This document shows, piece by piece, positions 8,218 to 34,862 of a DNA stretch of 64,000 bases. The translations under genes and the position numbers were made by a program. Origin of the DNA: an uncultured Aeromonadales bacterium (lineage in GTDB: Bacteria > Pseudomonadota > Gammaproteobacteria > Enterobacterales > Succinivibrionaceae); assembly GCA_902782145.1 (NCBI GenBank), contig CACZLZ010000008.1, positions 23,327 through 87,326 of the forward strand, given 5' to 3'. Every line of letters starts with the position of its first letter. The stretch's first letter is position 1. The notes beneath the pieces were generated by a model. The model made no database searches. It saw only the letters and a program-made list of their open reading frames with translations, and had not been told where the DNA came from.

Positions 8218-9258
8218 TCAGCTCCAGTATTCCCTGAAAGCCGGATTGCGGATGATCTTCTTGAGCTTGTCCGCATACTTGGGATCCGTGGCATATCCCG
8301 CCTTCTGCAGCTCCTCAAAGTAGTTGTCGGCGGTCTGGGCGTCCTTCACCCTGCTGTAACGGCTGTTGCCGGTTATAAGCCGGGCGTAGTCCTCCATGCT
8401 GGCCTCGATGCTGCTGTAGGCCCGGAAGCTGGAGTTGACCATGACCTTCTTCCCGTTCACATACTCGTAGCTGTTGGCCCGGGTGGTTCCCGTCTTCCGG
8501 CCCCCGGCCTTGATCCCGTAGAAGTTGTTGGCCGATGCGGTGCCCTTCTTCATCAGGTGCCGGCCCCATCCGGTCTCCAGGGCCGCCTGGGCCACCATGA
8601 CCATGGGATCCAGCCCGAACTTGGAGGCCACCTTCCGGGCAATGGGCATCAGCTTGTCCACAAAGTCCAGCTGCGCCTTCCCGGCCTTGCCGTCCCGGCC
8701 CTTCACCGAGAAGTGCTTCTGGAGTTCGGCCTCCTGGATGACATCCGGAGTGCGGCTGCTCCTGACAGAATCCAAAGCAAATTCCCTGCCAAAATACTCA
8801 CTCCGCAGGGGAACCTGGGTAGCGGACTCCTGGCGGCGGGCGTTTTCCAGGCTGAAGGCGCCCGGGGTGCGGTTCAGGGCGAAGCTCCGGCTCTCATTGG
8901 GCATGTGGAGTTCACCGGTGGAAGGGGATGAGTTGGAAGACTTGTCCAGCTGGCGGACAATCAGTTCGGAAAGGCCCCCGGACTGCATGCTGACGCCGTT
9001 GCTGGCAAGCTGGGCGGACATCTGCTCATCCAGCATGGACTGGTAGAGCTCCGAGGTGGAACTGGACAGGGGGTTATCCTTGTACAGTTCCTTGGTTGAT
9101 TCTCTCTGGACCTTGAGCCACATCTGGGTGAACATGGCCTCAAACTGGTTGGCGGCCTGCCTGAGGGCGGCGCTCCTTTCCGCCTTCCCGCCGGTCAGGC
9201 CCTGCCTGCGAAGATGTTCCAGAGAGCTGTAGTCGTTGACAAAGTCGGTGTTTCCCAT
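8218..9258 (-). CDS. flgJ: flagellar rod assembly protein / peptidoglycan hydrolase FlgJ
   Basis: N-terminal rod-binding motif AANQFEAMFTQMWLK. C-terminal glucosaminidase-like AQAALETGWG...NNFYGIK...YEYVNGK. Confidence 0.9.
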   Translation of the reverse strand: MGNTDFVNDYSSLEHLRRQGLTGGKAERSAALRQAANQFEAMFTQMWLKVQRESTKELYKDNPLSSSTSELYQSMLDEQMSAQLASNGVSMQSGGLSELIVRQLDKSSNSSPSTGELHMPNESRSFALNRTPGAFSLENARRQESATQVPLRSEYFGREFALDSVRSSRTPDVIQEAELQKHFSVKGRDGKAGKAQLDFVDKLMPIARKVASKFGLDPMVMVAQAALETGWGRHLMKKGTASANNFYGIKAGGRKTGTTRANSYEYVNGKKVMVNSSFRAYSSIEASMEDYARLITGNSRYSRVKDAQTADNYFEELQKAGYATDPKYADKLKKIIRNPAFREYWS

Positions 9259-9282
9259 CTTCGCATCTCCTTCAGTCAGGGG

Positions 9283-10401
9283 TTATATGATGATCAGTTC
9301 CCCCTCTATAGCCCCGGCCTGCTGCAGAGCCTCCAGGACACTCATCAGGTCACCTGGCGCCAGGCCGATCTGGTTGATGGTCCGGACCAGGTCATCCAGG
9401 GAGTTGGAGGATTCCAGTTTGAACATCCGGGTGTTCTTCTCCTCCACCGAGATGTCGGATTCGGGAACCACCGCCGTCTCGCCTTCAGCCAGGGGGTTGG
9501 GCTGATAGACCTGGATATTCTCCTTCACAGTCACCGTGAGTCCGCCGTGGGTGATGGCCACCGGATGGAGTTTCACATCCTTCCCGATGACAATGGTGCC
9601 GGTGCGGGAGTTCACGATGATCTTCGCAGCCTCGTCAGCCATGGTCACATCCAGGTTCTCCACCGCCGACATGAAATTGACTCTGGCGCTGGGATCCCGG
9701 GGGGCGTAGACCTCCACCGAGGTTGCATCTAGTGCTCTAGCAGTATTCTTGCCAAAGTTCTCATTAATTGTGTCAGCCACACTGTTGGCGGTGGAAAAGT
9801 CGGCCCGGTGCAGGTTCAGCACCACCGTGTCCCCGTACTCGAAGGAGGACTTCACCGCCCGCTCCACGATAGCCCCGTTGGCAATGCGGCCCACCGTGGG
9901 AGTGTTGATCACCACCTTGGAGCCGTCAGAGCCCTCAGTGCCCAGGCCCGACACCACCAGGGATCCCTGGGCCACGGCGTACACCTGACCGTCCGCACCC
10001 TTCAGGAAGGTCTGGATCAGGGAGCCGCCCCTAAGACTCTTGGCCTCGCCGATCGCCGAAACGGTGACGTCAATAGTCTGACCCGGCTTGGCGAAGGGCG
10101 GCAGCTCCGCATGGACCACCACCGGTGCCACATCCTTCATCTTGGGCTTGATGTTGTCGGAGACCTTGATGCCGAAATTGTTGAGCATGGTGCGGAAGGT
10201 CTGCTCCGAGAAGGCGTTGTTCTTCTCGCCGGTGCCGTTGAGGCCCACCACCAGGCCGTAGCCGATAAGCTGGTTGGCCCTGACGCCCTGCACCGAGGTT
10301 ATGTCCTTGATCCGGGAAGCCTCAGCCTGGGGAAGGAGGATGATCTGGAGGATCATGGCCGCCGCCAGCAGGGAGGCCTTAAACAGCTGTCTGACATTCA
10401 T
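9283..10401 (-). CDS. flgI: flagellar P-ring protein FlgI
   Basis: Signal peptide followed by [31 protein letters not shown], the canonical FlgI sequence. Confidence 0.95.
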
Positions 10402-10428
10402 GGGATATCTCCTGTCCGCAAGCCATCA

Positions 10429-11115
10429 TCAGAAGGGATTAAACACACTGTTCAGGAACTTGGACAGCCAGCCCCGCTCCTGGGTGTTGGCAAAGTCTCC
10501 GGTTCCGCCGTACTGGATCCGGGCGTTGGCTATGCGCTGGGAGGACACGGTGTTGTCGGAGTTGATGTCCTCGGGACGCAGAAGACCGGTGATCCTGATG
10601 TACTCATTGCCATTATTGAGCATCAGCCACTTCTCGCCCCGGACCTTCAGATTGCCATTAGGCAAAACCTGTACCACACTGACAGAAATATTTCCCTGGA
10701 GGCTGTTGCTCTGGTTGGCCTCGGAGTCGCCCTTGAAGTCATTGCCCGCACCGCCCGAAGCCTCAGGGGTGAACTTGCCCAGATGGACATTCTGTCCCAG
10801 GAGGGTCAGAGGCTGCACGTTGAAGGAGCTCTTCTTCCCCAGTTCCGTGGTGGCGTTCTTCTTGGCGGAGGTCTTCTCCTCCAGGTTCACGGTGATGAGA
10901 TCCCCCACCTTGTGGGCCTTGATATCGGAGTAGATGCTGCTGACCCCGGCATTGTCAAAGATGGAGCCGGTGGGCACCACATTCACGGTGCGCTCCGCAG
11001 GAGCGGCAGGGGCAAAGTCCGGATCGTCGGGCTTGGGGGATCCTGCCTCGATGACGGAGGCGCATCCGGAAAGCAGGGCGGCTGAGATGATGGCGGCGGG
11101 AAGGATCCTGTTCAT
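10429..11115 (-). CDS. flgH: flagellar L-ring lipoprotein FlgH
   Basis: Lipobox LLSGC, then GSIFDN...VGDLITVNLEEKTSAKK...ISVSVVQVLPNGNL, the FlgH pattern. Confidence 0.95.
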   Translation of the reverse strand: MNRILPAAIISAALLSGCASVIEAGSPKPDDPDFAPAAPAERTVNVVPTGSIFDNAGVSSIYSDIKAHKVGDLITVNLEEKTSAKKNATTELGKKSSFNVQPLTLLGQNVHLGKFTPEASGGAGNDFKGDSEANQSNSLQGNISVSVVQVLPNGNLKVRGEKWLMLNNGNEYIRITGLLRPEDINSDNTVSSQRIANARIQYGGTGDFANTQERGWLSKFLNSVFNPF

Positions 11116-25860: not shown

Positions 25861-28431
25861 ATGGCAGTCAACGTTCGCAAGCTATTCAAGTCACCCAGAA
25901 AAAAGCAGGCCGGGGATGATCCCCTGCTCCCTGAGAAGCCTGGTGCCGCCCCTGCCGGGGACACTGCCCCATCCCGGAAAGAAGCCTCTGCCGGAAAGGC
26001 GGACAAATCTCCCCTGCCCGGCAGTCAGACCGGATCCGGGACCCCTGGAGACGGCAGCGCACGCCCTGCCGCCACTCCTGCATCATCCAAAGAGACTTCC
26101 CCGGACGGCAGCAGCCGCCTGAAGGCCACATCCGGCGGCAGCAGTTCTCCCGGCTCCAGGAATGCACCCGCCGCCAAAACTACCGCAGCAGGAAAGAGGG
26201 GCCGCTCCCCAGATCCGGCCGCATCTGCCGCCTCCATCAGAGCCGGCACCGGCACTTCTTCCATCAGATCCGGTGACCTGGGCAGCCGAGCCGCCCGATC
26301 CGGTGACAGATCTTCCCCTTCCAGCAGTTCCGGCGGCAGCACGAACCTTTCCGGCAAGATCGGCAGCAATGCCGGATCCGCTGGCAAGGGAAAGAAAGAA
26401 CGATCCCTTAAAGATCGGATCTACGGCATCATCACCTTCTCCGACATATCCATTGTCAACGTGGTGCACATGGGCTTCTTGCTGCTCCTGTTCATCATCT
26501 GCGGCATCGCCGGCATCACCTATTCCAGCCTGAGCAGCCTCAGCAGCGCCTTCAACGTGGTTTCAGATCACGCCACCCCCATGGCCATGATCGCCAAATC
26601 CATGGAGTCCGATCTGCTGCTCATCCACGACGACGTGAACCAGATCCTCATGGAGCGGGTCCCGGACCGCATAGCCGTCCATGAGAAGGAGCTGTCCTCC
26701 TTCCGGGAAAGCTTCCAGAAGTCCCTGGAGGATTTCCAGGAGATCACCCGGGATGAGCCCAAGCTCCAGGAACTCATTGCCGGGGTACAGGGCATGACCG
26801 ACGCCTACCTGTCGGAGATCAGCAAGATCCCCGCCCTCCGGGGGGAACTCCTGAAGAGAACCGCCGAGGTCAACAAGCAGAAGGCCGCCTTCGGCGGTCT
26901 GGTGCGCTTCTTCAACAACGAGGAGACCGCCTTCTTCGCCAAGATTGACGATGATTTCCTCCTGGACAGCTACCGTTGCATGAAAGCCGCCCAGAGCACC
27001 ATGGAGAGCAACACCACCACCGCCCTGGACACGGATATCCCCGAGAAGATCCAGGAGTACATCAAGACCAACCAGAGCTACCTGAAGGAGTTCAACCTGA
27101 ATCTCAATGATCTCAAAGCCGAGATCAAGGATCTGGAAAACAACCTGGGCACCTACATCTCCAGTTTCATCTATGACACCACCAATCCCAACGGTCTGAT
27201 CTACAACCACCTGAAGCTGGCCGAGGAGACCATGGAGCTCCAGCGTGCCGCCGACGGGGCCAAGGAGAACATCATCCGGATCCGGGAGCACATCCACACA
27301 GTCCAGAAAATGGCCAACGAGGCCATCAACCAGAGCAACCGCACGGCCAACAGCATCTTTGACCGCAGCCGGATAACCCTGCTGGTGTCCGTGGCCCTGT
27401 CCATTGTGGTGGCACTGTTCGTGGCCTTCCTGGTGGGCAGATCCATCCGGGTGCCCCTGGGGCGCATCATCAGCGCCATCTCCGCCATGTCCGACGGCGT
27501 CTACGTGGGCCGCCTGGGCTACCGTGCCAACAACGAGTTTGGCCTGCTGACCCGCAGGATCAAGGCCTTGCGGCTGCAGTTTGCCGACGTGCTCCGCCAG
27601 GTGTCCGAGGGATCCAACAAGGTCAAGAATGCGGCTGAAGCCAACACCGATGCCGCCACCAACACCGCCAACGGCATCCAGTCCCAGCAGCGCATGACCC
27701 GGGACATGGTGAACGCCATCGAGGAGATGCGGGCCTCCGGCGCCGAAATGGCCGACTCCGCCAACGAGACCCGGAAGATAGTCCTCCAGGCCGGGGAGGC
27801 AGTGACCAACGGCAGCGATGTCATCAACCGCAACATTGAGTCCACCAGGAAGCTGGCCGAGCAGATCGCCTCCACCGGCGAGCGGGTCAACCAGGTGAGT
27901 GCCATGAGCCAGAACATCAACTCGGTGATCCAGGTTATCCGCGGGGTAGCGGATCAGACCAACCTGCTGGCCCTGAACGCCGCCATTGAGGCTGCCCGGG
28001 CCGGTGAACACGGCCGGGGCTTTGCCGTGGTGGCAGACGAGGTCCGCAGTCTGGCAAGCAAGACCGCCGCCGCCACCAACCAGATCCGGGAGGTTATCGA
28101 GGCGCTGCAGGACTCCGTGGGCAAGTCAGTGGACTCCATGCAGGAATGCCGCAATGAGATGGAAAAGTCCATCAGCCAGACCTCCGACGTCCACCATGCC
28201 ATTCAGAAGATCCAGACTCACCTCAACGTCATCACCGAATATTCCGACAAGATCGTGGATGCCGCCAACAACCAGGCCAGCAGCACCGACGCCGTGGCCA
28301 TGAACGTGAAGGACATTGCCTCCATTTCCGAGAGCAACGTGGAGGAGATCAACAAGGTGAAGGAAGCCTGCCTGGGTCTGAACGAACTGGCCAGATCCCA
28401 AACCGAGTGGGTCAGCAAGTTCACCTTCTGA
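25861..28431 (+). CDS. methyl-accepting chemotaxis protein with about 190-aa low-complexity N-terminal extension
   Basis: Signalling hairpin QTNLLALNAAIEAARAGEHGRGFAVVADEVRSLASKTA. Two TM segments flank a helical sensor region, followed by a HAMP-like segment. Confidence 0.9.
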   Translation: MAVNVRKLFKSPRKKQAGDDPLLPEKPGAAPAGDTAPSRKEASAGKADKSPLPGSQTGSGTPGDGSARPAATPASSKETSPDGSSRLKATSGGSSSPGSRNAPAAKTTAAGKRGRSPDPAASAASIRAGTGTSSIRSGDLGSRAARSGDRSSPSSSSGGSTNLSGKIGSNAGSAGKGKKERSLKDRIYGIITFSDISIVNVVHMGFLLLLFIICGIAGITYSSLSSLSSAFNVVSDHATPMAMIAKSMESDLLLIHDDVNQILMERVPDRIAVHEKELSSFRESFQKSLEDFQEITRDEPKLQELIAGVQGMTDAYLSEISKIPALRGELLKRTAEVNKQKAAFGGLVRFFNNEETAFFAKIDDDFLLDSYRCMKAAQSTMESNTTTALDTDIPEKIQEYIKTNQSYLKEFNLNLNDLKAEIKDLENNLGTYISSFIYDTTNPNGLIYNHLKLAEETMELQRAADGAKENIIRIREHIHTVQKMANEAINQSNRTANSIFDRSRITLLVSVALSIVVALFVAFLVGRSIRVPLGRIISAISAMSDGVYVGRLGYRANNEFGLLTRRIKALRLQFADVLRQVSEGSNKVKNAAEANTDAATNTANGIQSQQRMTRDMVNAIEEMRASGAEMADSANETRKIVLQAGEAVTNGSDVINRNIESTRKLAEQIASTGERVNQVSAMSQNINSVIQVIRGVADQTNLLALNAAIEAARAGEHGRGFAVVADEVRSLASKTAAATNQIREVIEALQDSVGKSVDSMQECRNEMEKSISQTSDVHHAIQKIQTHLNVITEYSDKIVDAANNQASSTDAVAMNVKDIASISESNVEEINKVKEACLGLNELARSQTEWVSKFTF

Positions 28432-28704
28432 GAACTGCTCCGTGCCCTAGGCACGTGGGGCTCCGCTCAGGCTCGGAAACTCCGCTCAGACCTCTGTTCC
28501 TTCGTGTGATACGGCAGGATCGAAGCCCTGGGCGGTCACTGCCACTGGAAGGTAACTGATCCGGCATCCTCTCCCCAGGAGCTTCTTCAGGCAGTGCTTT
28601 TATTCTCACCCGCTAACTTGCGCCCGCCTCATATCTCCGCAATGCAGGAGGGAGGCCAAAACGAGACCTCTCCCCGCAGATCACCCGCACCTGATCCTGC
28701 TCAT

Positions 28705-29107
28705 CACGCAAAAACCTCATTTTCAGCCGCCAACAGCCCGGCAGTGACTGCACATACCAGCCTTATGTCCTGCAATATCTGCATTTTTTGCCACTCAGAA
28801 CGTTGCAATAACTGCACTTTTTAACGCTCACGGCACTGCAAAATCTGCACTTTTTGGCTGCAGTGCCCAGAATACCGCACTGATCCTGACCAGATCCAGC
28901 ACAACTCCATGCCTTCAGGAACTCCGCAAGCCCCATTTCCCCTTTCTCCTGAACAGAAAAGCTGGCAACAGCAGTTTAGTCAAATTCGCAAAACCTGCAC
29001 TTTTTGCTGCACAGCAACCTGCAAAACCACCATTTTCAGCCCCATTGGATCATGCAAAACCTGCACTTTTCGCTCCTTTCAGCTATGCAAAAACCGCACC
29101 TTCAGAC
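28705..29107. repeat. array of at least 8 copies of a palindromic 21-nt motif TGCAAAAyCTGCACTTTTTGC, phased at 33 bp
   Basis: Copies begin at 28708, 28771, 28804, 28837, 28987, 29020, 29053 and 29086. The arms GCAAAA / TTTTGC are inverted. Eroded copies lie between the two blocks. Confidence 0.85.
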
Positions 29108-29185
29108 AAAAAGCCGATCCAGCCTGAGTTTTTTCTGTTCTAGTGTGTGATAATCCATGCAGTCATCTGCTCCCGGAGGGACACA

Positions 29186-30553
29186 TTGATATTCAAAAGA
29201 AAGGTCTATGACCAACTCCTGGAATGGAAGGAGAAATTCTCCCGAAGATATGCTGTCATGCTGGAAGGCCCCAGACGGGTTGGCAAGTCAACCATTGCCG
29301 AAGAATTCGCCCGGAGACATTTCCGCTCATACATCAGGATCGACTTTGCCGACATAACCCCGGAAAGGATTAAAGCCATTTTCAGCAGTCTGGCGACGCC
29401 GGATCTGCTGTTCCTCCAACTCCAGGCTGACACCGGGATCCAACTGTATCCAGGGGAGTCAGTTATCATATTTGACGAGATCCAGCGGGCACCGCCTGTC
29501 CGTCAGGCCATCAAATACCTGGTGGCTGACGGCAGGTACAGTTACATTGAGACTGGCTCCCTGATAAGCATCCGCCAAAACATCAGGAACATAGTGATCC
29601 CGTCAGAAGAATATTTCATCAGCGTCAACCCCCTTGATTTCGAGGAATTCCTCCTGGCCACCGGCAACCAGGCCTACGGCATTCTCCGGGAGCTTTACCA
29701 CCGCAACAAGCCCGTTGGCAGTCAGACAAACACCAAGCTCATGCGGGATCTGCGCCTTTATATGGCTGTCGGCGGCATGCCCCAGGCCGTAGAGTCCTAC
29801 ATTGGCAAGAACAACTTCGTTGAAATTGACCGGATCAAACGATCAATACTTGACCTGTACGAGCAGGATTTCTACCGCATCGACAAATCCGGGATCCTGG
29901 CGAAAATGTTCACCTCCATCCCCAGCCAGCTTGGCCATAACAAGAAGAGATTCGTGCTGTCCCAGGCCTCCGGGAAACGCACCACAGCAAAAGATCTGGA
30001 AAGGTTTTCCGAACTGGTGGACTCCAAAACCGTCCAGGTCTCCTACGACACAGCCGATCCCGGAATTGCCCTGGGCTCCACGGCAAGACCAGACTCCTAC
30101 AAAGTCTATCTCAGTGACACCGGCCTTTTCACCTCCCTGCTTTTCAGCTCAGCCGATCAGACCAGCAGCCAGATCTATAGCAAACTCCTGAGCGACAAAC
30201 TGAGCGCGAACCTCGGTTACCTCTATGAGAACGCCGCCGCACAGATGATCACTGCCAGCGGCAACAAGCTGTTCCATCACACATGGAAGAAGGAAGGCAG
30301 CACCCATCACCACGAAATCGATTTTCTGATCCAAGCCGGGACCAAGATAGTGCCCATCGAGATCAAATCCTCCAGCATCAACAGCCACAGTTCCATCACA
30401 GCTTTCAGCCTCAAATACCCCGGCAGGATCCTGAGCCAGTACCTGTTCTCCCAAAAAGATGTGAGCCACAGGGAGACACTCCTGTGCAAACCACTGTGGA
30501 TGCTGCCCTTTGTCCTGGAGGAACTGGGACAGGCAGAAATAACTGGCCGGTAA
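29186..30553 (+). CDS. AAA+ ATPase with DUF4143-type C-terminal domain (COG1373-like)
   Basis: Walker A LEGPRRVGKST and Walker B VIIFDEIQ. The C-terminal EIDFLI...IPIEIKSS is a restriction-endonuclease-like motif typical of this family. Start was chosen at TTG 29186, 5 nt after GGAGGG. Confidence 0.75.
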   Translation: MIFKRKVYDQLLEWKEKFSRRYAVMLEGPRRVGKSTIAEEFARRHFRSYIRIDFADITPERIKAIFSSLATPDLLFLQLQADTGIQLYPGESVIIFDEIQRAPPVRQAIKYLVADGRYSYIETGSLISIRQNIRNIVIPSEEYFISVNPLDFEEFLLATGNQAYGILRELYHRNKPVGSQTNTKLMRDLRLYMAVGGMPQAVESYIGKNNFVEIDRIKRSILDLYEQDFYRIDKSGILAKMFTSIPSQLGHNKKRFVLSQASGKRTTAKDLERFSELVDSKTVQVSYDTADPGIALGSTARPDSYKVYLSDTGLFTSLLFSSADQTSSQIYSKLLSDKLSANLGYLYENAAAQMITASGNKLFHHTWKKEGSTHHHEIDFLIQAGTKIVPIEIKSSSINSHSSITAFSLKYPGRILSQYLFSQKDVSHRETLLCKPLWMLPFVLEELGQAEITGR

Positions 30554-30631
30554 AACCCGGATAGAAGAACCGCGGCAGCGGGACACCCCGGAATTTGAAT
30601 ATTTTGTCAGAAGCAGACTGGGTTGCTGAAC

Positions 30632-31924
30632 ATGGCACAGATAGAAGGTTTGAGAATTCAGAACTACAAGGCGCTGAAGGATATAACACTGGGAAAGTTA
30701 TGGAACACTCAGGACAGGCCCCTGACCCGGCTGACCGCGGTGATTGGCCATAACGGCACCGGGAAAAGCTCACTCTTTGATGCCTTTGGTTTTATCGCCG
30801 ACTGCCTGAAAATGGGAGTGGAAGAGGCCTGTGACAACCGGGGAGGCTTTGAAACGATTTACTCCAAAGGGGTGGATTTGGCGGAGGGGATGACTTTTAC
30901 GGTTTCTTACCGGGAGAGTTCTGATGCTGATGACAGCCCCATAACGTATGAGTTTGCCATTAAAGCCGCTGCCGACAGATGGCCTTATGTGGCTTCAGAA
31001 AGGCTGCGGCAAAAAAGGAAGGGATCTACTGAGGGCGACTGTCCTCAGTCATTTATGATCATCAATAACGGCACCGGAGTGGTCTGGAAAGGCGGATCTG
31101 AAGGCAGGCTGAACAATGAAGATGAGGGTTCTGTGTTAAACCTCATTAACCAAATCGAAGCGGGACAAAAGACAGAAGAGACAAATGAAACCGAAGTTGT
31201 GAGGCTGGAAGACAACCGGCACCTTGCGGTTACTACCCTCGGCTCATTAAAACAGCATCCAAGGATCACCGAATTCAGAAAATTTATTGAAAGCTGGTAT
31301 TTAAGTTATTTTACCCCCGACTCTGCCCGTTCGCTGCCGGCTACCGGCTGTCAGAAGCACCTTGACAGTCATGGCGGCAATCTCGCAAATGTGGTTCAGT
31401 ACATGCAAAGGGAGCACGGGAACCAATTTAAGAAGGTGCTAAGCAGGATCTCCGCCAAAATTCCCGGCATAGAAAAGATAGACACCCGGGTAACACCAGA
31501 CGGCAGGCTGCTGCTTGAATTTTATGCAGAGGGATTTGCGGAACCCTTCTTTGCCCAGCAGATGTCGGACGGCACACTGAAATACTTCACCTATCTTCTG
31601 CTTCTGGAAGATCCTGAGCCTCATTCACTGGTCTGCATTGAGGAGCCTGAGAACGGTCTCTACCCCCAGCTGCTGGAAGAACTGGGCCAAGAATTCCGCA
31701 ATTATGCATCAGCCAGAACAGCAGACTCCCAGGTGTTTATCACGACCCATCAGCCCTTTTTGCTTAACGCATTCAATACTGATGAGGTGTGGATCCTGGA
31801 AAAGCAGCCGGACGGCTTTGCCCGCATTTCCCGTGCCAGCAATAATGAACTGGCAAGACAAATGGCAGATGCAGGACTTCCCCTGGGGGAACTGTGGTAC
31901 AGCGATTATCTCAGCGGGAAATGA
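30632..31924 (+). CDS. ABC/SMC-type AAA ATPase (AAA_21/AAA_15-like), partner of the downstream Toprim-like gene
   Basis: IQNYKALKD...VIGHNGTGKSSLFDAF (Walker A), MSDGTLKYFTYLLLL (signature-like), LVCIEEPENGLYPQLL (Walker B) and FITTHQPFLL (H-loop). Confidence 0.8.
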   Translation: MAQIEGLRIQNYKALKDITLGKLWNTQDRPLTRLTAVIGHNGTGKSSLFDAFGFIADCLKMGVEEACDNRGGFETIYSKGVDLAEGMTFTVSYRESSDADDSPITYEFAIKAAADRWPYVASERLRQKRKGSTEGDCPQSFMIINNGTGVVWKGGSEGRLNNEDEGSVLNLINQIEAGQKTEETNETEVVRLEDNRHLAVTTLGSLKQHPRITEFRKFIESWYLSYFTPDSARSLPATGCQKHLDSHGGNLANVVQYMQREHGNQFKKVLSRISAKIPGIEKIDTRVTPDGRLLLEFYAEGFAEPFFAQQMSDGTLKYFTYLLLLEDPEPHSLVCIEEPENGLYPQLLEELGQEFRNYASARTADSQVFITTHQPFLLNAFNTDEVWILEKQPDGFARISRASNNELARQMADAGLPLGELWYSDYLSGK

Positions 31925-32879
31925 ATGCACTTTGAAATCCTGGTTGAGGATCTTTCGGGCAAGATAATGCTTGCCAGCCTGATCCCCATGATCATAGGAG
32001 CTGATCCTGCCAATACCTTCAGGATCATCCATTACCGGGGATGCGGATCCCTGCCATCAGATCTGAAAGTGAGCCAGGCCGCCGACAAACGGGCACTGCT
32101 GAATCAGCTGCCAAGGCTGCTCATTGGCTACAGCCGGGCATTTCAGAATGCGGTCAGTGACAATGCGGTCATTGTCGTATGCGATCTGGACACCCGGGAC
32201 AAAGACACCTTTCTGGCCAGGTTAAATCAGATGCGGGATGAGGCGGCGGCAGCGACGTCCGTTCCCCTGACCGTCCGCTTCTGCCTGGCCATTGAAGAAG
32301 GAGAAGCCTGGCTTCTGGGCGACTGGGAGGCGGTAAAACAGGCTCTTTGCAAAAACAAGTTGGAATTATCCAGGATTATATATTCTAAATATCAAAAACA
32401 TATAGCCATGAATATTTATTTGCTGGAGATCGGATTTAGGTATGTGCCATCATGTCGTCATGCTAACACATTGATTTCTGGGGGCTTTTGACTGTGTGTG
32501 TGCTTACGCAGCTTCTAAAACTGAAGGCTCATTTCGTGTCATAGCCCATGGGGCTGGCCAACATCGTTCCAACTGGAATTTGCAAAGACCCGTAAAACAG
32601 GCATATCCCCAGGCCAAAGCGAGTGTTTTCCGTAAATACCAAAACGATGCCGTCTGCGGCACCTGGGAAATGCTGGCTGACATGATCTGCCCGGGTGGTT
32701 CAGCGAAACTGAAAGCCGAGGGACATAGTTTACTCGGCCAGGCAAAATGCGAATGGGCTGAAAAGATCAGCCCACTCATGGATATTTCCCGCAACAAGTC
32801 CCCAAGTTTCAACGTCTTCAAAAGCGCGCTGGAAAGTCTCCTGCACCTGCCCCATCATGAGCCGGAACATATACCCTGA
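31925..32879 (+). pseudogene. Toprim-like DUF4276-type gene split by a MITE insertion
   Basis: The two ORFs 31925..32491 and 32496..32879 join in frame (...EAVKQ|AYPQAKASV...) once 32341..32599 is removed. Conserved EILVED, CDLDTRD and AIEEGEAWLLGD motifs are present. The ATG directly follows the TGA of the ATPase gene. Confidence 0.7.
32341..32591. mobile_element. 251-bp MITE (non-autonomous element with ISL3-like termini)
   Basis: Left end is GGCTCTTTGCAAAAACAAGTTGGAA. The reverse complement of the right end is GGGTCTTTGCAAATTCCAGTTGGAA, about 21/25 identical. It is flanked by a perfect 8-bp direct repeat GTAAAACA (32333-32340 and 32592-32599). The interior is AT-rich with no ORF. Confidence 0.75.
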
Positions 32880-32969
32880 AACATCCCGGCCGGTGGGCTG
32901 ACATCGAAGCCTGCGCCGGGCTGCCACCAGTAGCCGGCAAAGAGCCATCCAATCTGACAGCCAGCCTGC

Positions 32970-34862
32970 TCAGTCCCGGACCACCGGCGCCCCGGCATCA
33001 GCCAGGATATCCTGACCGTCAGCAGTTTCCCCGCTGCCCTGGGGGACATAGGAGATCTCGCTGTCAATGGGCGGGACGACCGCTGCCGGGGTCACCGCAA
33101 CCTCCGCATTGTCCCGGGCGATCTTGGCACAGGCCTGGGCATCCGCATTCATCCGGGTGATCCCGGAGGCCTTCCGGCTGTCAGCACCGGATCCTGCCAC
33201 ATCGGCAATGACACTGAAGCTGTCCAGGAAACTTCTGAGATCTCCCAGGAAGGCATTGGCCGTGGCCGGATCCCCGTGCATCTCCATCACAAACCTGGCG
33301 CCATCAAGACGGGCAAAGCCCCGGCCCACAAAGGTGGCAGAGATGATCCGGGAGATGATCAGCCACTGGTGGAAACTGGACCGCACCACGGTGTTCTCAG
33401 AACGGTGGGAGTCATACACGCTGCTGCCCACAGTCACTGTGGAGGTGGTGTATGTGCCGTTGTTCTTGTAGTAGATCATCAGGGAGGAGAACTTCAGCTC
33501 GCTGTAGAACAGTCCGGCAGCATCCCACAGCATCTTGGCGGAGATCAGCAACAGCACCAGAGTCAGGGCGGTCCCTGCCAGGGACTGGCCGCTGATGGAG
33601 TCAAAGGCGCCGTTCCAGTTGTGGGTGAAGCCCTGGGCGAAGGCGGCCAGTTTGGAGTAGGTAAGCACCGTGACAATGCCCGCGGCAAGTCCCAGGAGGA
33701 ACTTCACACAGACAAAGGCGGGATGCTGGCCGGAGGGGATGCACTCGGGCTGGGTCTCCTGCACCGTGTAGCCGAAGAACTCGCCCTTGGACTCGGAGGA
33801 ATGGGACTGCAGCCCCGGCACCGACCGGCTGTAGACCCGGTTGGGGGTCTCCCGGAAACGCCGGCCCGCCATGGCCTTGTTGTCAATGGCAGAAAACAGC
33901 TCGTCTGGGTGGACCGACTCCTGCCAGTCCTCGATGCGCTCGGTGACCTCAGTCTTGAGATCATACTCCAGGGTCTTGCACCAGGTCAGGAACAGAATGG
34001 GCAGGGTGATCAGCAGGGGGATCAGGGCAAAGGCCCAGAACCAGCTGATCCAGGGGAAGGCGTTGAACACGTCCACACACTCCCGGAACACCCCGTCAGC
34101 CGGAACGGAGACCAGGGTGAACAGGCCGCCCAGGAAGGCGGGCACCGCCAGGGCATAGGCGATGTTGAGGGTGAAGTAGCGGATCCGGAGATTGTCAGGG
34201 GCGGCCACCCGGTTGCGATCGGCCACAAAGGCCCGGCGCCACAGGAACACCATCCGGGCACCGAAAAACAGTGCGCACAGGTTCACAGCCAGCACCGGGC
34301 TCCCCTGCCCCACCAGGGATGTGTCCACCAGGAACACCAGGGCACCGTACCCGCACAGGAGCACCAGGGTGTTGATGATGGCCGAGACGCACCCCTGGAG
34401 GATGTTGCGGTAAGGGGGCGGCAGGAAGAACATGCTGCGGAACAGGGTGTAGCACAGGCTCTCCACCCAGCACCGGGGCTCTACAAAGGTCTTGTTCATG
34501 CGGGAGTTGAGCATCTCAGCCAGGTCGGCTGCCTTGTAGGTGATGTGCAGCTGGTTCTCCCCGGGGTTCTCCATATCGGTGGCCAGGGACTTGGGATCAT
34601 GGCGTCCCACTGTCAGGGAGAGGCACTTGAGCAGGCCGGCGCCGGAGAAGACAAGACCGTTCAGGGCGATGACCACGCCGAAAAACAGTGAGATCCAGGC
34701 TGCGGGATTCTGTCCGGACTTCACCAGTGACGATATGTCCGTGAGCATTCCCAGTCCCAGGTACAGGGTGTAAAGACCCGCCGCCGCCTGGATCAGCCCC
34801 AGCACCAGCATGGGATTCCGGATCCGCTGGCTCTTGGATCCCAGATCATTTTGTCCGGCCAT
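32970..34862 (-). CDS. polytopic membrane protein, unknown family (630 aa)
   Basis: Long ORF with host-like composition. About 8 hydrophobic segments in two clusters are separated by a soluble region of about 90 aa. The C-terminal soluble domain is about 150 aa. No motif recognised. Confidence 0.65.
   Translation of the reverse strand: MAGQNDLGSKSQRIRNPMLVLGLIQAAAGLYTLYLGLGMLTDISSLVKSGQNPAAWISLFFGVVIALNGLVFSGAGLLKCLSLTVGRHDPKSLATDMENPGENQLHITYKAADLAEMLNSRMNKTFVEPRCWVESLCYTLFRSMFFLPPPYRNILQGCVSAIINTLVLLCGYGALVFLVDTSLVGQGSPVLAVNLCALFFGARMVFLWRRAFVADRNRVAAPDNLRIRYFTLNIAYALAVPAFLGGLFTLVSVPADGVFRECVDVFNAFPWISWFWAFALIPLLITLPILFLTWCKTLEYDLKTEVTERIEDWQESVHPDELFSAIDNKAMAGRRFRETPNRVYSRSVPGLQSHSSESKGEFFGYTVQETQPECIPSGQHPAFVCVKFLLGLAAGIVTVLTYSKLAAFAQGFTHNWNGAFDSISGQSLAGTALTLVLLLISAKMLWDAAGLFYSELKFSSLMIYYKNNGTYTTSTVTVGSSVYDSHRSENTVVRSSFHQWLIISRIISATFVGRGFARLDGARFVMEMHGDPATANAFLGDLRSFLDSFSVIADVAGSGADSRKASGITRMNADAQACAKIARDNAEVAVTPAAVVPPIDSEISYVPQGSGETADGQDILADAGAPVVRD

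Follow-up and report, generated by a model that had tools for sequence, protein, structure and literature searches.

Several defence systems combine an ATP-binding cassette (ABC) ATPase with a Toprim nuclease, the two domains being fused in the OLD proteins (P2 Old, classes 1 and 2) and in GajA of Gabija, and lying on separate polypeptides in PARIS, where adjacent genes encode an AAA_15/21-type ABC ATPase (AriA) and a small effector with an E...DxD arrangement (AriB, a DUF4435 Toprim protein) (PMC11464382). In PARIS the AAA15/21 ATPases are sensors paired with TOPRIM effectors, and the same ABC-ATPase/TOPRIM defence tree includes MADS3-4 and DUF4276 (PMC11464382, Fig. 6c). DUF4276 has also been placed in the Toprim superfamily and occurs as a swappable effector domain in Menshen, as the C-domain of NsnC (PMC12065111). 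The closest described relative of the locus reported here is HEC-01 (Hma-embedded candidate 01), a two-gene candidate of PADLOC whose B protein was found to be structurally TOPRIM-like, with a metal site aligned to that of BpOLD (Payne et al., bioRxiv 10.1101/2024.01.29.577857). We describe a gene pair of this kind at positions 30632-32879 of a 64,000-nucleotide stretch of DNA, hereafter the window, from an uncultured Succinivibrionaceae bacterium (contig CACZLZ010000008.1, positions 23,327 to 87,326); all coordinates are those of the window unless another contig is named.

Profile and sequence comparisons show the locus to be an HEC-01-type operon of two abutting genes, the first encoding an ABC/SMC-like ATPase and the second a DUF4276 protein of 231 residues. 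An earlier note, made from the letters of the DNA, had proposed an OLD/PARIS-like pair of ATPase and nuclease as a candidate for defence; its identity and logic are upheld, but not its functionality in this strain, where the effector gene is disrupted, nor its novelty. Only the instance and its natural inactivation are new, the family being already in PADLOC and its Toprim nature published. Taken as a whole, we consider it on balance probable that an HEC-01 pair sits in a horizontally acquired islet, that its effector has been broken by an insertion resembling a miniature inverted-repeat transposable element (MITE), and that the intact system works as a sensor plus nuclease in the manner of PARIS and OLD.

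The gene pair and its interruption

The first gene (30632-31924, forward strand, 430 residues) is intact and of the HEC-01A type. The PADLOC model HEC-01A (PDLC04182) matched it at 6.8e-166, residues 1-428 aligning with positions 1-401 of the 406 in the profile, and the Pfam families AAA_21 (5.2e-32) and AAA_15 (5.9e-16) were recovered, as the earlier note had expected, together with SMC_N. The motif order of ABC ATPases is satisfied, with a Walker A, GHNGTGKSS (residues 39-47, 30746-30772), a signature-like SDGTLKY (residues 312-318, 31565-31585), a Walker B with its catalytic glutamate, LVCIEEPENG (residues 333-342, 31628-31657), and an H-loop, TTHQP (residues 371-375, 31742-31756), all on the forward strand and all as first read from the sequence; the residues of these four motifs are invariant among the 34 homologues compared. 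A search of the Protein Data Bank (PDB) sequences with gene 1 by phmmer gave nothing at E<=0.01, and a profile of its homologues retrieved the OLD nuclease 6P74 (4.6e-5, N-terminal head only) and the heads of SMC1, Rad50 and PtuA, all weakly. Since these profile matches are distant head regions only, the assignment of gene 1 to the ABC/SMC class is confirmed and a close solved relative is lacking. ABC ATPases usually carry an aspartate at the Walker B position that precedes the catalytic glutamate; in this family the motif reads CIEEPENG, an invariant E337 occupying that position ahead of the catalytic E338 in the same 34 homologues.

The stop codon of gene 1 directly abuts the start codon of gene 2 (TGA|ATG, 31922-31927), a junction already described in the earlier note. 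Gene 2 begins MHFEILVED, and the three motifs that had been singled out in it, EILVED (residues 4-9), CDLDTRD (residues 86-92) and AIEEGEAWLLGD (residues 122-133), are all present. The uninterrupted open reading frame (ORF) from this start covers 31925-32491 (188 residues) and runs into an insertion, ending at a stop at 32491. The gene itself is represented by an N-terminal fragment of 139 codons plus 2 nt (31925-32343, forward strand), which encodes an alpha/beta domain with E4, E8, D9, D87-L-D89, E124, E125 and E127, and by a C-terminal fragment (32603-32879, forward strand), which extends from the remainder of codon 140 to the stop codon at 32877-32879 and encodes a helical domain. This second fragment is spanned by an ORF in another frame that opens with GTG at 32496 and ends at 32879. 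The PADLOC model HEC-01B (PDLC04205) matched the N-terminal ORF at 1.9e-48 (profile positions 1-140 of 213), the C-terminal ORF at 1.4e-29 (129-211 of 213) and the repaired protein of 231 residues at 7.5e-82 (1-211 of 213). Likewise, the Pfam family DUF4276 (PF14103) gave the repaired protein 34.4 bits, just over the gathering score of 30.2 bits, and the N-terminal fragment by itself 27.7 bits, which is under it; homologues of gene 2 score 31-46 bits, and an NCBIfam scan of the repaired protein returned no match.

The insertion is a non-coding, MITE-like element of 248 bp with a guanine-plus-cytosine (GC) content of 40% (32344-32591), and it splits gene 2 at codon 140. It is bounded by imperfect terminal inverted repeats of 25 nt (left, 32341-32365; right, 32567-32591), the left being 84% complementary to the right, and flanked by a target-site duplication in the form of direct repeats of GTAAAACAGGC at 32333-32343 and 32592-32602. 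With its three leading bases (GGC) the left inverted repeat overlaps the end of the direct repeat, and the length of the target duplication is therefore given as 8-11 bp; when GGC is counted with the element, the element measures 251 bp and the duplication 8 bp. Excision of the element together with one repeat (259 bp) restores a single frame of 231 codons, whose product is 99% identical to an intact 231-residue protein from public assemblies (P0001). Three contigs, L001-L003, encode P0001; over 8-20 kb they match the window at 99% identity and in gene order, and their insertion site is empty, with a single copy of GTAAAACAGGC. On L001 the intact pair, whose ATPase is P0130, occupies 8708-10696. 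Because these near-identical conspecific contigs have the empty site, the insertion is a recent event at the level of the strain. The inverted repeats, the target duplication and the empty site agree with the MITE to which the earlier note alluded. Searches for a further copy were negative in the window, in the fetched loci, in plasmids and, by exact 28-mer or paired inverted-repeat pattern, in the metagenomes of the Joint Genome Institute (JGI), and for this reason the term is used here as a structural label only.

Gene 2 is a pseudogene in the window strain. As the insertion parts the predicted catalytic alpha/beta domain from the conserved helical C-terminal domain, the module is most likely dead in this strain. 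The truncated allele might instead be still functional, or newly so, its N-terminal 139 residues acting with the intact ATPase and its C-terminal fragment perhaps being expressed from a start inside the insertion. In favour of this, the insertion leaves all the acidic motifs on its upstream side, the ORF from GTG 32496 covers the C-terminal fragment, and four assembled contigs carry the disrupted allele. Against it, the family's invariant C-terminal residues (P142, Y152, D155, T160-W161-E162, K188, W191, N204, S206 and F209) are so many that the domain must be strongly constrained as a component of a single protein. In addition, an AlphaFold2 model of the N-domain alone reached a mean predicted local distance difference test score (pLDDT) of 76, falling to 56-63 around residues 121-138, compared with 87.6 for the full protein, and in other strains the pair has simply decayed by frameshift and nonsense mutation. 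We regard a functional truncated allele as very improbable. Annotation pipelines will show two 'hypothetical' fragments in place of one effector gene.

By its profile matches the locus has, except for gene integrity, what defines HEC-01 in PADLOC, where the pair is filed as a candidate defence system, and it also scores as a member of Pfam DUF4276. It shares with HEC-01 the same two families in the same order, a tight co-oriented operon and full-length matches to HEC-01A and, once repaired, to HEC-01B. Unlike an intact HEC-01, its B gene is split by the 248-bp insertion, and unlike the Hma-embedded examples it lies outside an Hma system, beside a PDC-S01 gene, in an uncultured Succinivibrionaceae bacterium.

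The coupling of the two genes was followed in a scan of one genome per species of the GTDB, which yielded more than 514 relatives of gene 2, of which the best 80 loci were kept. These span Pseudomonadota, Desulfobacterota, Verrucomicrobiota, Spirochaetota, Acidobacteriota, Cyanobacteria, Chloroflexota and Bacteroidota, as well as archaea (Methanosarcinaceae and ANME), and the closest pair homologues among them (61-76% identity) come from metagenome-assembled genomes (MAGs) of rumen and gut Succinivibrionaceae, Aeromonadales and Enterobacterales. In 79 of these 80 loci the DUF4276 gene is immediately preceded by a gene 1 homologue (49-76% identity), with an intergenic gap mostly of 0-6 nt; given this arrangement, their association in one operon is all but obligate, and the co-occurrence anticipated in the earlier note is borne out. 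The sole orphan is a DUF4276 homologue of 63% identity on an Enterobacterales MAG contig (L007, 1234-1878), with no ATPase gene within 1.2 kb upstream. Immediate neighbours across the 80 loci are highly heterogeneous, and many are housekeeping genes. An upstream DUF1156 gene occurs in 3 of 69 loci and a downstream DUF499 gene in 5 of 72; these two families make up the Hma system, the setting where HEC-01 first came to notice. Plasmids (4 of 72,556) and phage records (1 of 50,697) only rarely contain the subfamily.

This distribution, together with the profile scores of gene 1, bears on the view that the pair serves housekeeping DNA repair rather than immunity, in the way of RecF, an SMC-like ATPase, and RecR, a Toprim protein. 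The domain logic is similar and there are weak matches to RecF and SMC_N; the match to the defence-candidate model, however, is at 1e-166 and that to RecF only at an E of about 0.1, and the pair is sporadic in occurrence, horizontally transferred and dispensable within the species. A repair pair of this kind is in our judgement barely credible.

Toprim-like features and the proposed mechanism

The AlphaFold2 model of the repaired gene 2 product (pLDDT 87.6, predicted template modelling score 0.84) consists of a domain of alternating beta strands and alpha helices and a helical domain at residues 134-220. The modelled strands comprise residues 2-8, 31-38, 80-87 and 116-122, which puts E8 at the end of beta1, D87 and D89 at the end of beta3, and E125 and E127 after beta4. 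In an alignment of 60 homologues D87, L88, D89, E124, E125 and E127 do not vary, and E4, E8 and D9 hardly do so. A broader set of 91 sequences, made up of the repaired query and 90 full-length representatives clustered at 50% identity from 1,438 library hits, gave a similar picture: E8 is kept in 84 of the 86 residues at its column (5 gaps), D87 in 89 and D89 in 90 of the 91 sequences, E125 in 89, E127 in 88 and W129 in all 91. The conservation of E and DxD that the earlier note had looked for among homologues is met with here in the form of a near-invariant E...DxD...EE. A conserved glutamate after beta1 and a DxD after beta3, within a four-stranded alpha/beta domain as modelled, constitute the Toprim pattern.

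Profile comparison by hhalign gave a weak signal towards an OLD-type Toprim domain, for which a profile was built from homologues of full-length P2 Old. Against P2 Old, whether represented by one sequence or by a profile, the narrow DUF4276 profile reached a probability of 1%, and the broad DUF4276 profile aligned with the Toprim of P2-Old type at a probability of 36% (E 3.7e-4, 45 columns), compared with 0.1% for the control alignment of the same profile with the ATPase part of Old. In this pairing 'eiLVED' and 'rGiG' of gene 2 stand opposite 'lLvEGKTE' and 'G' of the Toprim. Such a link, together with the OLD nuclease 6P74 as the best solved-sequence match of the ATPase profile and the published alignment of the metal site to BpOLD, speaks for the main rival to our account, a constitutive complex as in OLD or Gabija, in which ATPase and DUF4276 protein would combine into a stable nuclease that attacks invading DNA directly, by nicking or degradation, and is regulated by nucleotide levels or DNA ends, with no PARIS-like release of an RNase by a trigger and no abortive-infection effector. 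The two domains are, nevertheless, on separate polypeptides as in PARIS, no match to PF20469 (Toprim_OLD) was obtained, there is no GajB-like helicase partner, and the DUF4276 protein has a conserved helical domain of its own, which OLD proteins lack. We therefore hold a constitutive DNA nuclease of this sort to be unlikely; the addiction reading discussed below and the RecF/RecR-like one are less likely still.

Membership in the neighbouring described systems was considered and rejected in each case. OLD and Gabija resemble the locus in the combination of an ABC ATPase with Toprim-type acidic motifs and in the weak profile link between the DUF4276 N-terminus and the Old Toprim E-motif; they were set aside because the domains that are fused in OLD and GajA are here on two genes, PF20469 is lacking and no UvrD-like GajB helicase is encoded nearby, and the effector of the locus, unlike OLD and GajA, has an extra helical domain. 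PARIS resembles it in the separate AAA_15/21-type ATPase and small E...DxD effector encoded by adjacent genes, and was rejected since there is no DUF4435 match, the PADLOC AriA model (6.7e-30) is confined to the generic C-terminal AAA_21 core (residues 264-379), and the AriA chains of the PDB reached only E 0.28 against the profile of gene 1 homologues; unlike PARIS, the HEC-01 family is rarely borne by phages or plasmids. In MADS, Mad3 is an AAA_15/21 ATPase and Mad4 a DUF4276 homologue (PMC12065111, PMC11464382), and the PADLOC model mad3 matched gene 1 at 9.7e-16, but the NCBIfam model MAD3 gave only a partial match of 103 bits against a cut-off of 420 bits, and there are no mad genes and no methyltransferase nearby, the neighbouring genes being those for the methyl-accepting chemotaxis protein, the PDC-S01 protein, the membrane protein, the PHP protein and the pyruvate kinase. 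AbiL, with an ABC ATPase (AbiLi; partial match to gene 1 at 5.1e-27) and a divergent Toprim-superfamily effector (AbiLii, RloB-like), was rejected for want of a RloB match, and Menshen differs from the locus in its NsnA/NsnB/NsnC architecture.

PARIS is, by analogy, the best mechanistic model, that of a sensor scaffold releasing a nuclease. By that analogy and by analogy with the OLD family, we hypothesize that an oligomer of the ATPase would serve as both sensor and scaffold and keep the DUF4276 subunit inactive, until a cue of phage origin, in conjunction with the binding or hydrolysis of ATP, sets it free or activates it. The DUF4276 subunit would then employ a putative Toprim-like acidic metal site, composed of E8 after beta1, D87 and D89 after beta3, and E125 and E127 after beta4, and the active subunit may cut nucleic acid, either tRNA or DNA, so that the infection is aborted.

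Several observations weigh against this account of a sensor with a Toprim-like nuclease. Foldseek found no Toprim protein, and nothing at E<=1e-3, either with the full AlphaFold2 model against the PDB and BFVD or with the model of the N-domain (residues 1-138) against the PDB, the best matches being generic flavodoxin-, Rossmann- or GTPase-like folds; an hmmsearch of the DUF4276 profile against PDB sequences gave nothing credible; and the hhalign signal is limited to beta1-alpha1-beta2 and lies below conventional significance. To our knowledge, no nuclease activity, substrate, complex of the A and B proteins or trigger is known for DUF4276 proteins. In the window itself the effector gene is broken, and consequently no claim of activity can be made for this locus. 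Most homologues lie outside recognisable defence islands, a minority being embedded in DUF1156/DUF499 (Hma) systems. Finally, an HEC-01 representative gave no protection to E. coli MG1655 ΔRM against the BASEL and classic phages (10.1101/2024.01.29.577857), while with a representative from a cold seep E. coli B was protected from one or more of the phages T4, T5 and T7 (10.1101/2024.09.26.614923). These two published tests disagree, and the broken copy of the window does not by itself open the question. The earlier note is outdated in holding that a DUF4276 partner had been noted only in surveys and not characterised, since HEC-01 has been challenged with phages twice and a homologue, Mad4, is part of MADS (PMC12065111, PMC11464382). 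As for the Toprim arrangement that the note had read in gene 2, motif and topology agree with it and published analyses favour it, but the structural search did not find it and the hhalign probability was only 36%; given the empty Foldseek searches and the weak hhalign result, the assignment rests mainly on the agreement of motif and topology and on the two published analyses.

The islet and its surroundings

The pair lies in an islet of low GC content (28432-32969, about 4.4 kb; GC about 0.50-0.53 compared with about 0.60 in the flanks), whose only other gene (29186-30553, forward strand) encodes an AAA_14 and DUF4143 ATPase of 455 residues. This protein matched Pfam AAA_14 at 1.8e-20 and DUF4143 at 5.5e-16, and over its full length the PADLOC single-gene candidate PDC-S01 (PDLC04786) at 2.2e-89. 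By these assignments the islet is a mini defence islet of two PADLOC 'candidate' systems, PDC-S01 and HEC-01. One side is bordered by a gene for a methyl-accepting chemotaxis protein (25861-28431, forward strand), the other by a gene convergent with gene 2 (32970-34862, reverse strand) that encodes a predicted multi-pass membrane protein of 630 residues, is syntenic in the conspecific contigs and had no Pfam or PADLOC match. Outside the islet the genes are of a housekeeping nature (PHP phosphoesterase, pyruvate kinase, sigma-54 activator and sugar-nucleotide enzymes), and the neighbouring pyruvate kinase clusters at an identity of at least 90% with proteins named Succinivibrionaceae. In the gene content of the syntenic contigs there is no integrase or transposase at the islet. 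Horizontal acquisition of the islet is shown by the drop in GC across it and by the heterogeneous neighbourhoods of the homologues, a minority of which lie within DUF1156/DUF499 (Hma) systems.

Ahead of the PDC-S01 gene, an intergenic region of 715 bp contains direct repeats of 21 nt (28708-29107; consensus GCAAAAyCTGCACTTTTTGCy) at an exact spacing of 33 bp, in clusters at 28772/28805/28838 and 28988/29021/29054/29087 with a degenerate copy at 28708, which look like iterons or an array of regulator-binding sites. An Rfam scan of the region 27-35 kb returned nothing, and a scan for promoters and terminators gave nothing informative above shuffled expectation. The chemotaxis protein at 25861-28431 has an unusually long, low-complexity N-terminal extension of ~190 residues, rich in Ser, Gly, Ala and Pro, before its first transmembrane segment.

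The pair had also been described as lying in DNA of lower GATC density than its flanks. The density is indeed lower (18 sites in 2248 bp, or 8.0 per kb, compared with 12.6 per kb in the whole window), but the difference is weak, as 8% of equal-sized windows contain no more sites than the pair does (z about -1.5) and part of the deficit is accounted for by the islet's lower GC. GATC depletion was accordingly rejected as a signature of foreign DNA, the pair standing at a non-distinctive 8th percentile of equal-sized windows. Over the whole 64 kb GATC occurs 809 times, 3.5 times the expectation from base composition and 1.34 times that of a second-order Markov model, and CTAG (0.28x) and CGCG (0.25x) are strongly under-represented; this bias is a genome-wide signature of the Succinivibrionaceae lineage, not of the gene pair.

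Decay within the species

Intact alleles, those of L001-L003, coexist with broken ones among the conspecific contigs. Two contigs, L084 (2636-4623) and L085 (518-2505), share a stop at codon 391 of the ATPase gene and, close to codon 99 of the DUF4276 gene, a deletion of 1 bp (one of five contigs, from several runs); another two, L086 (86-661) and L087 (190-765), carry two 1-bp deletions in the DUF4276 gene. A further member of the cluster, P0134, is an N-terminally shortened ATPase. For the 1-bp indels of L084-L087 an assembly error is conceivable; for the nonsense substitution of L084 and L085 it is unlikely, because that substitution is common to several samples. The pair has been knocked out in at least two, possibly three, independent ways, namely by the MITE-like element, by the lesions of L084 and L085 and by the deletions of L086 and L087, and the species can clearly do without the HEC-01 module, whose loss has occurred on more than one occasion.

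The recurrence of loss-of-function alleles within one species (the MITE-like insertion, L084/L085 and the frameshifts of L086/L087) is also what might be expected of a selfish cassette of the addiction or toxin-antitoxin kind, in which the ATPase would neutralise a toxic DUF4276 nuclease and the module would persist by post-segregational killing or horizontal transfer, with no dedicated role against phages. Pfam describes AAA_21 as a 'putative AbiEii toxin, type IV TA', the pair is patchy across phyla with variable neighbourhoods and sits here in a low-GC islet, and Payne et al. saw no phage protection. One HEC-01 system did, however, protect against phage (10.1101/2024.09.26.614923), some homologues are embedded in Hma defence systems, and the pair is rare on the plasmids and phages where addiction modules thrive. 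The ATPase, moreover, is broken in L084 and L085, which would be lethal if it were the essential antidote to an active toxin, although this is not decisive because gene 2 is broken there too. An addiction cassette is in our view improbable.

Returning to the reading of HEC-01 as a sensor with an effector, one may go further and suppose that it is a genuine immune module whose DUF4276 effector is costly, that its recurrent loss reflects selection for gain and loss between autoimmunity and phage pressure, and that the conserved helical C-terminal domain is a regulatory or ATPase-docking element; we put this forward tentatively and think it rather doubtful. Whichever is the case, the natural allelic series of intact, MITE-disrupted and nonsense or frameshift alleles within a single gut or rumen species could serve to find out whether carrying the system has a cost. 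If intact HEC-01 works in the way proposed here, DUF4276 would represent a further effector flavour of the widespread design that couples an ABC-ATPase sensor to a Toprim nuclease, as in OLD, Gabija, PARIS, AbiL and MADS.

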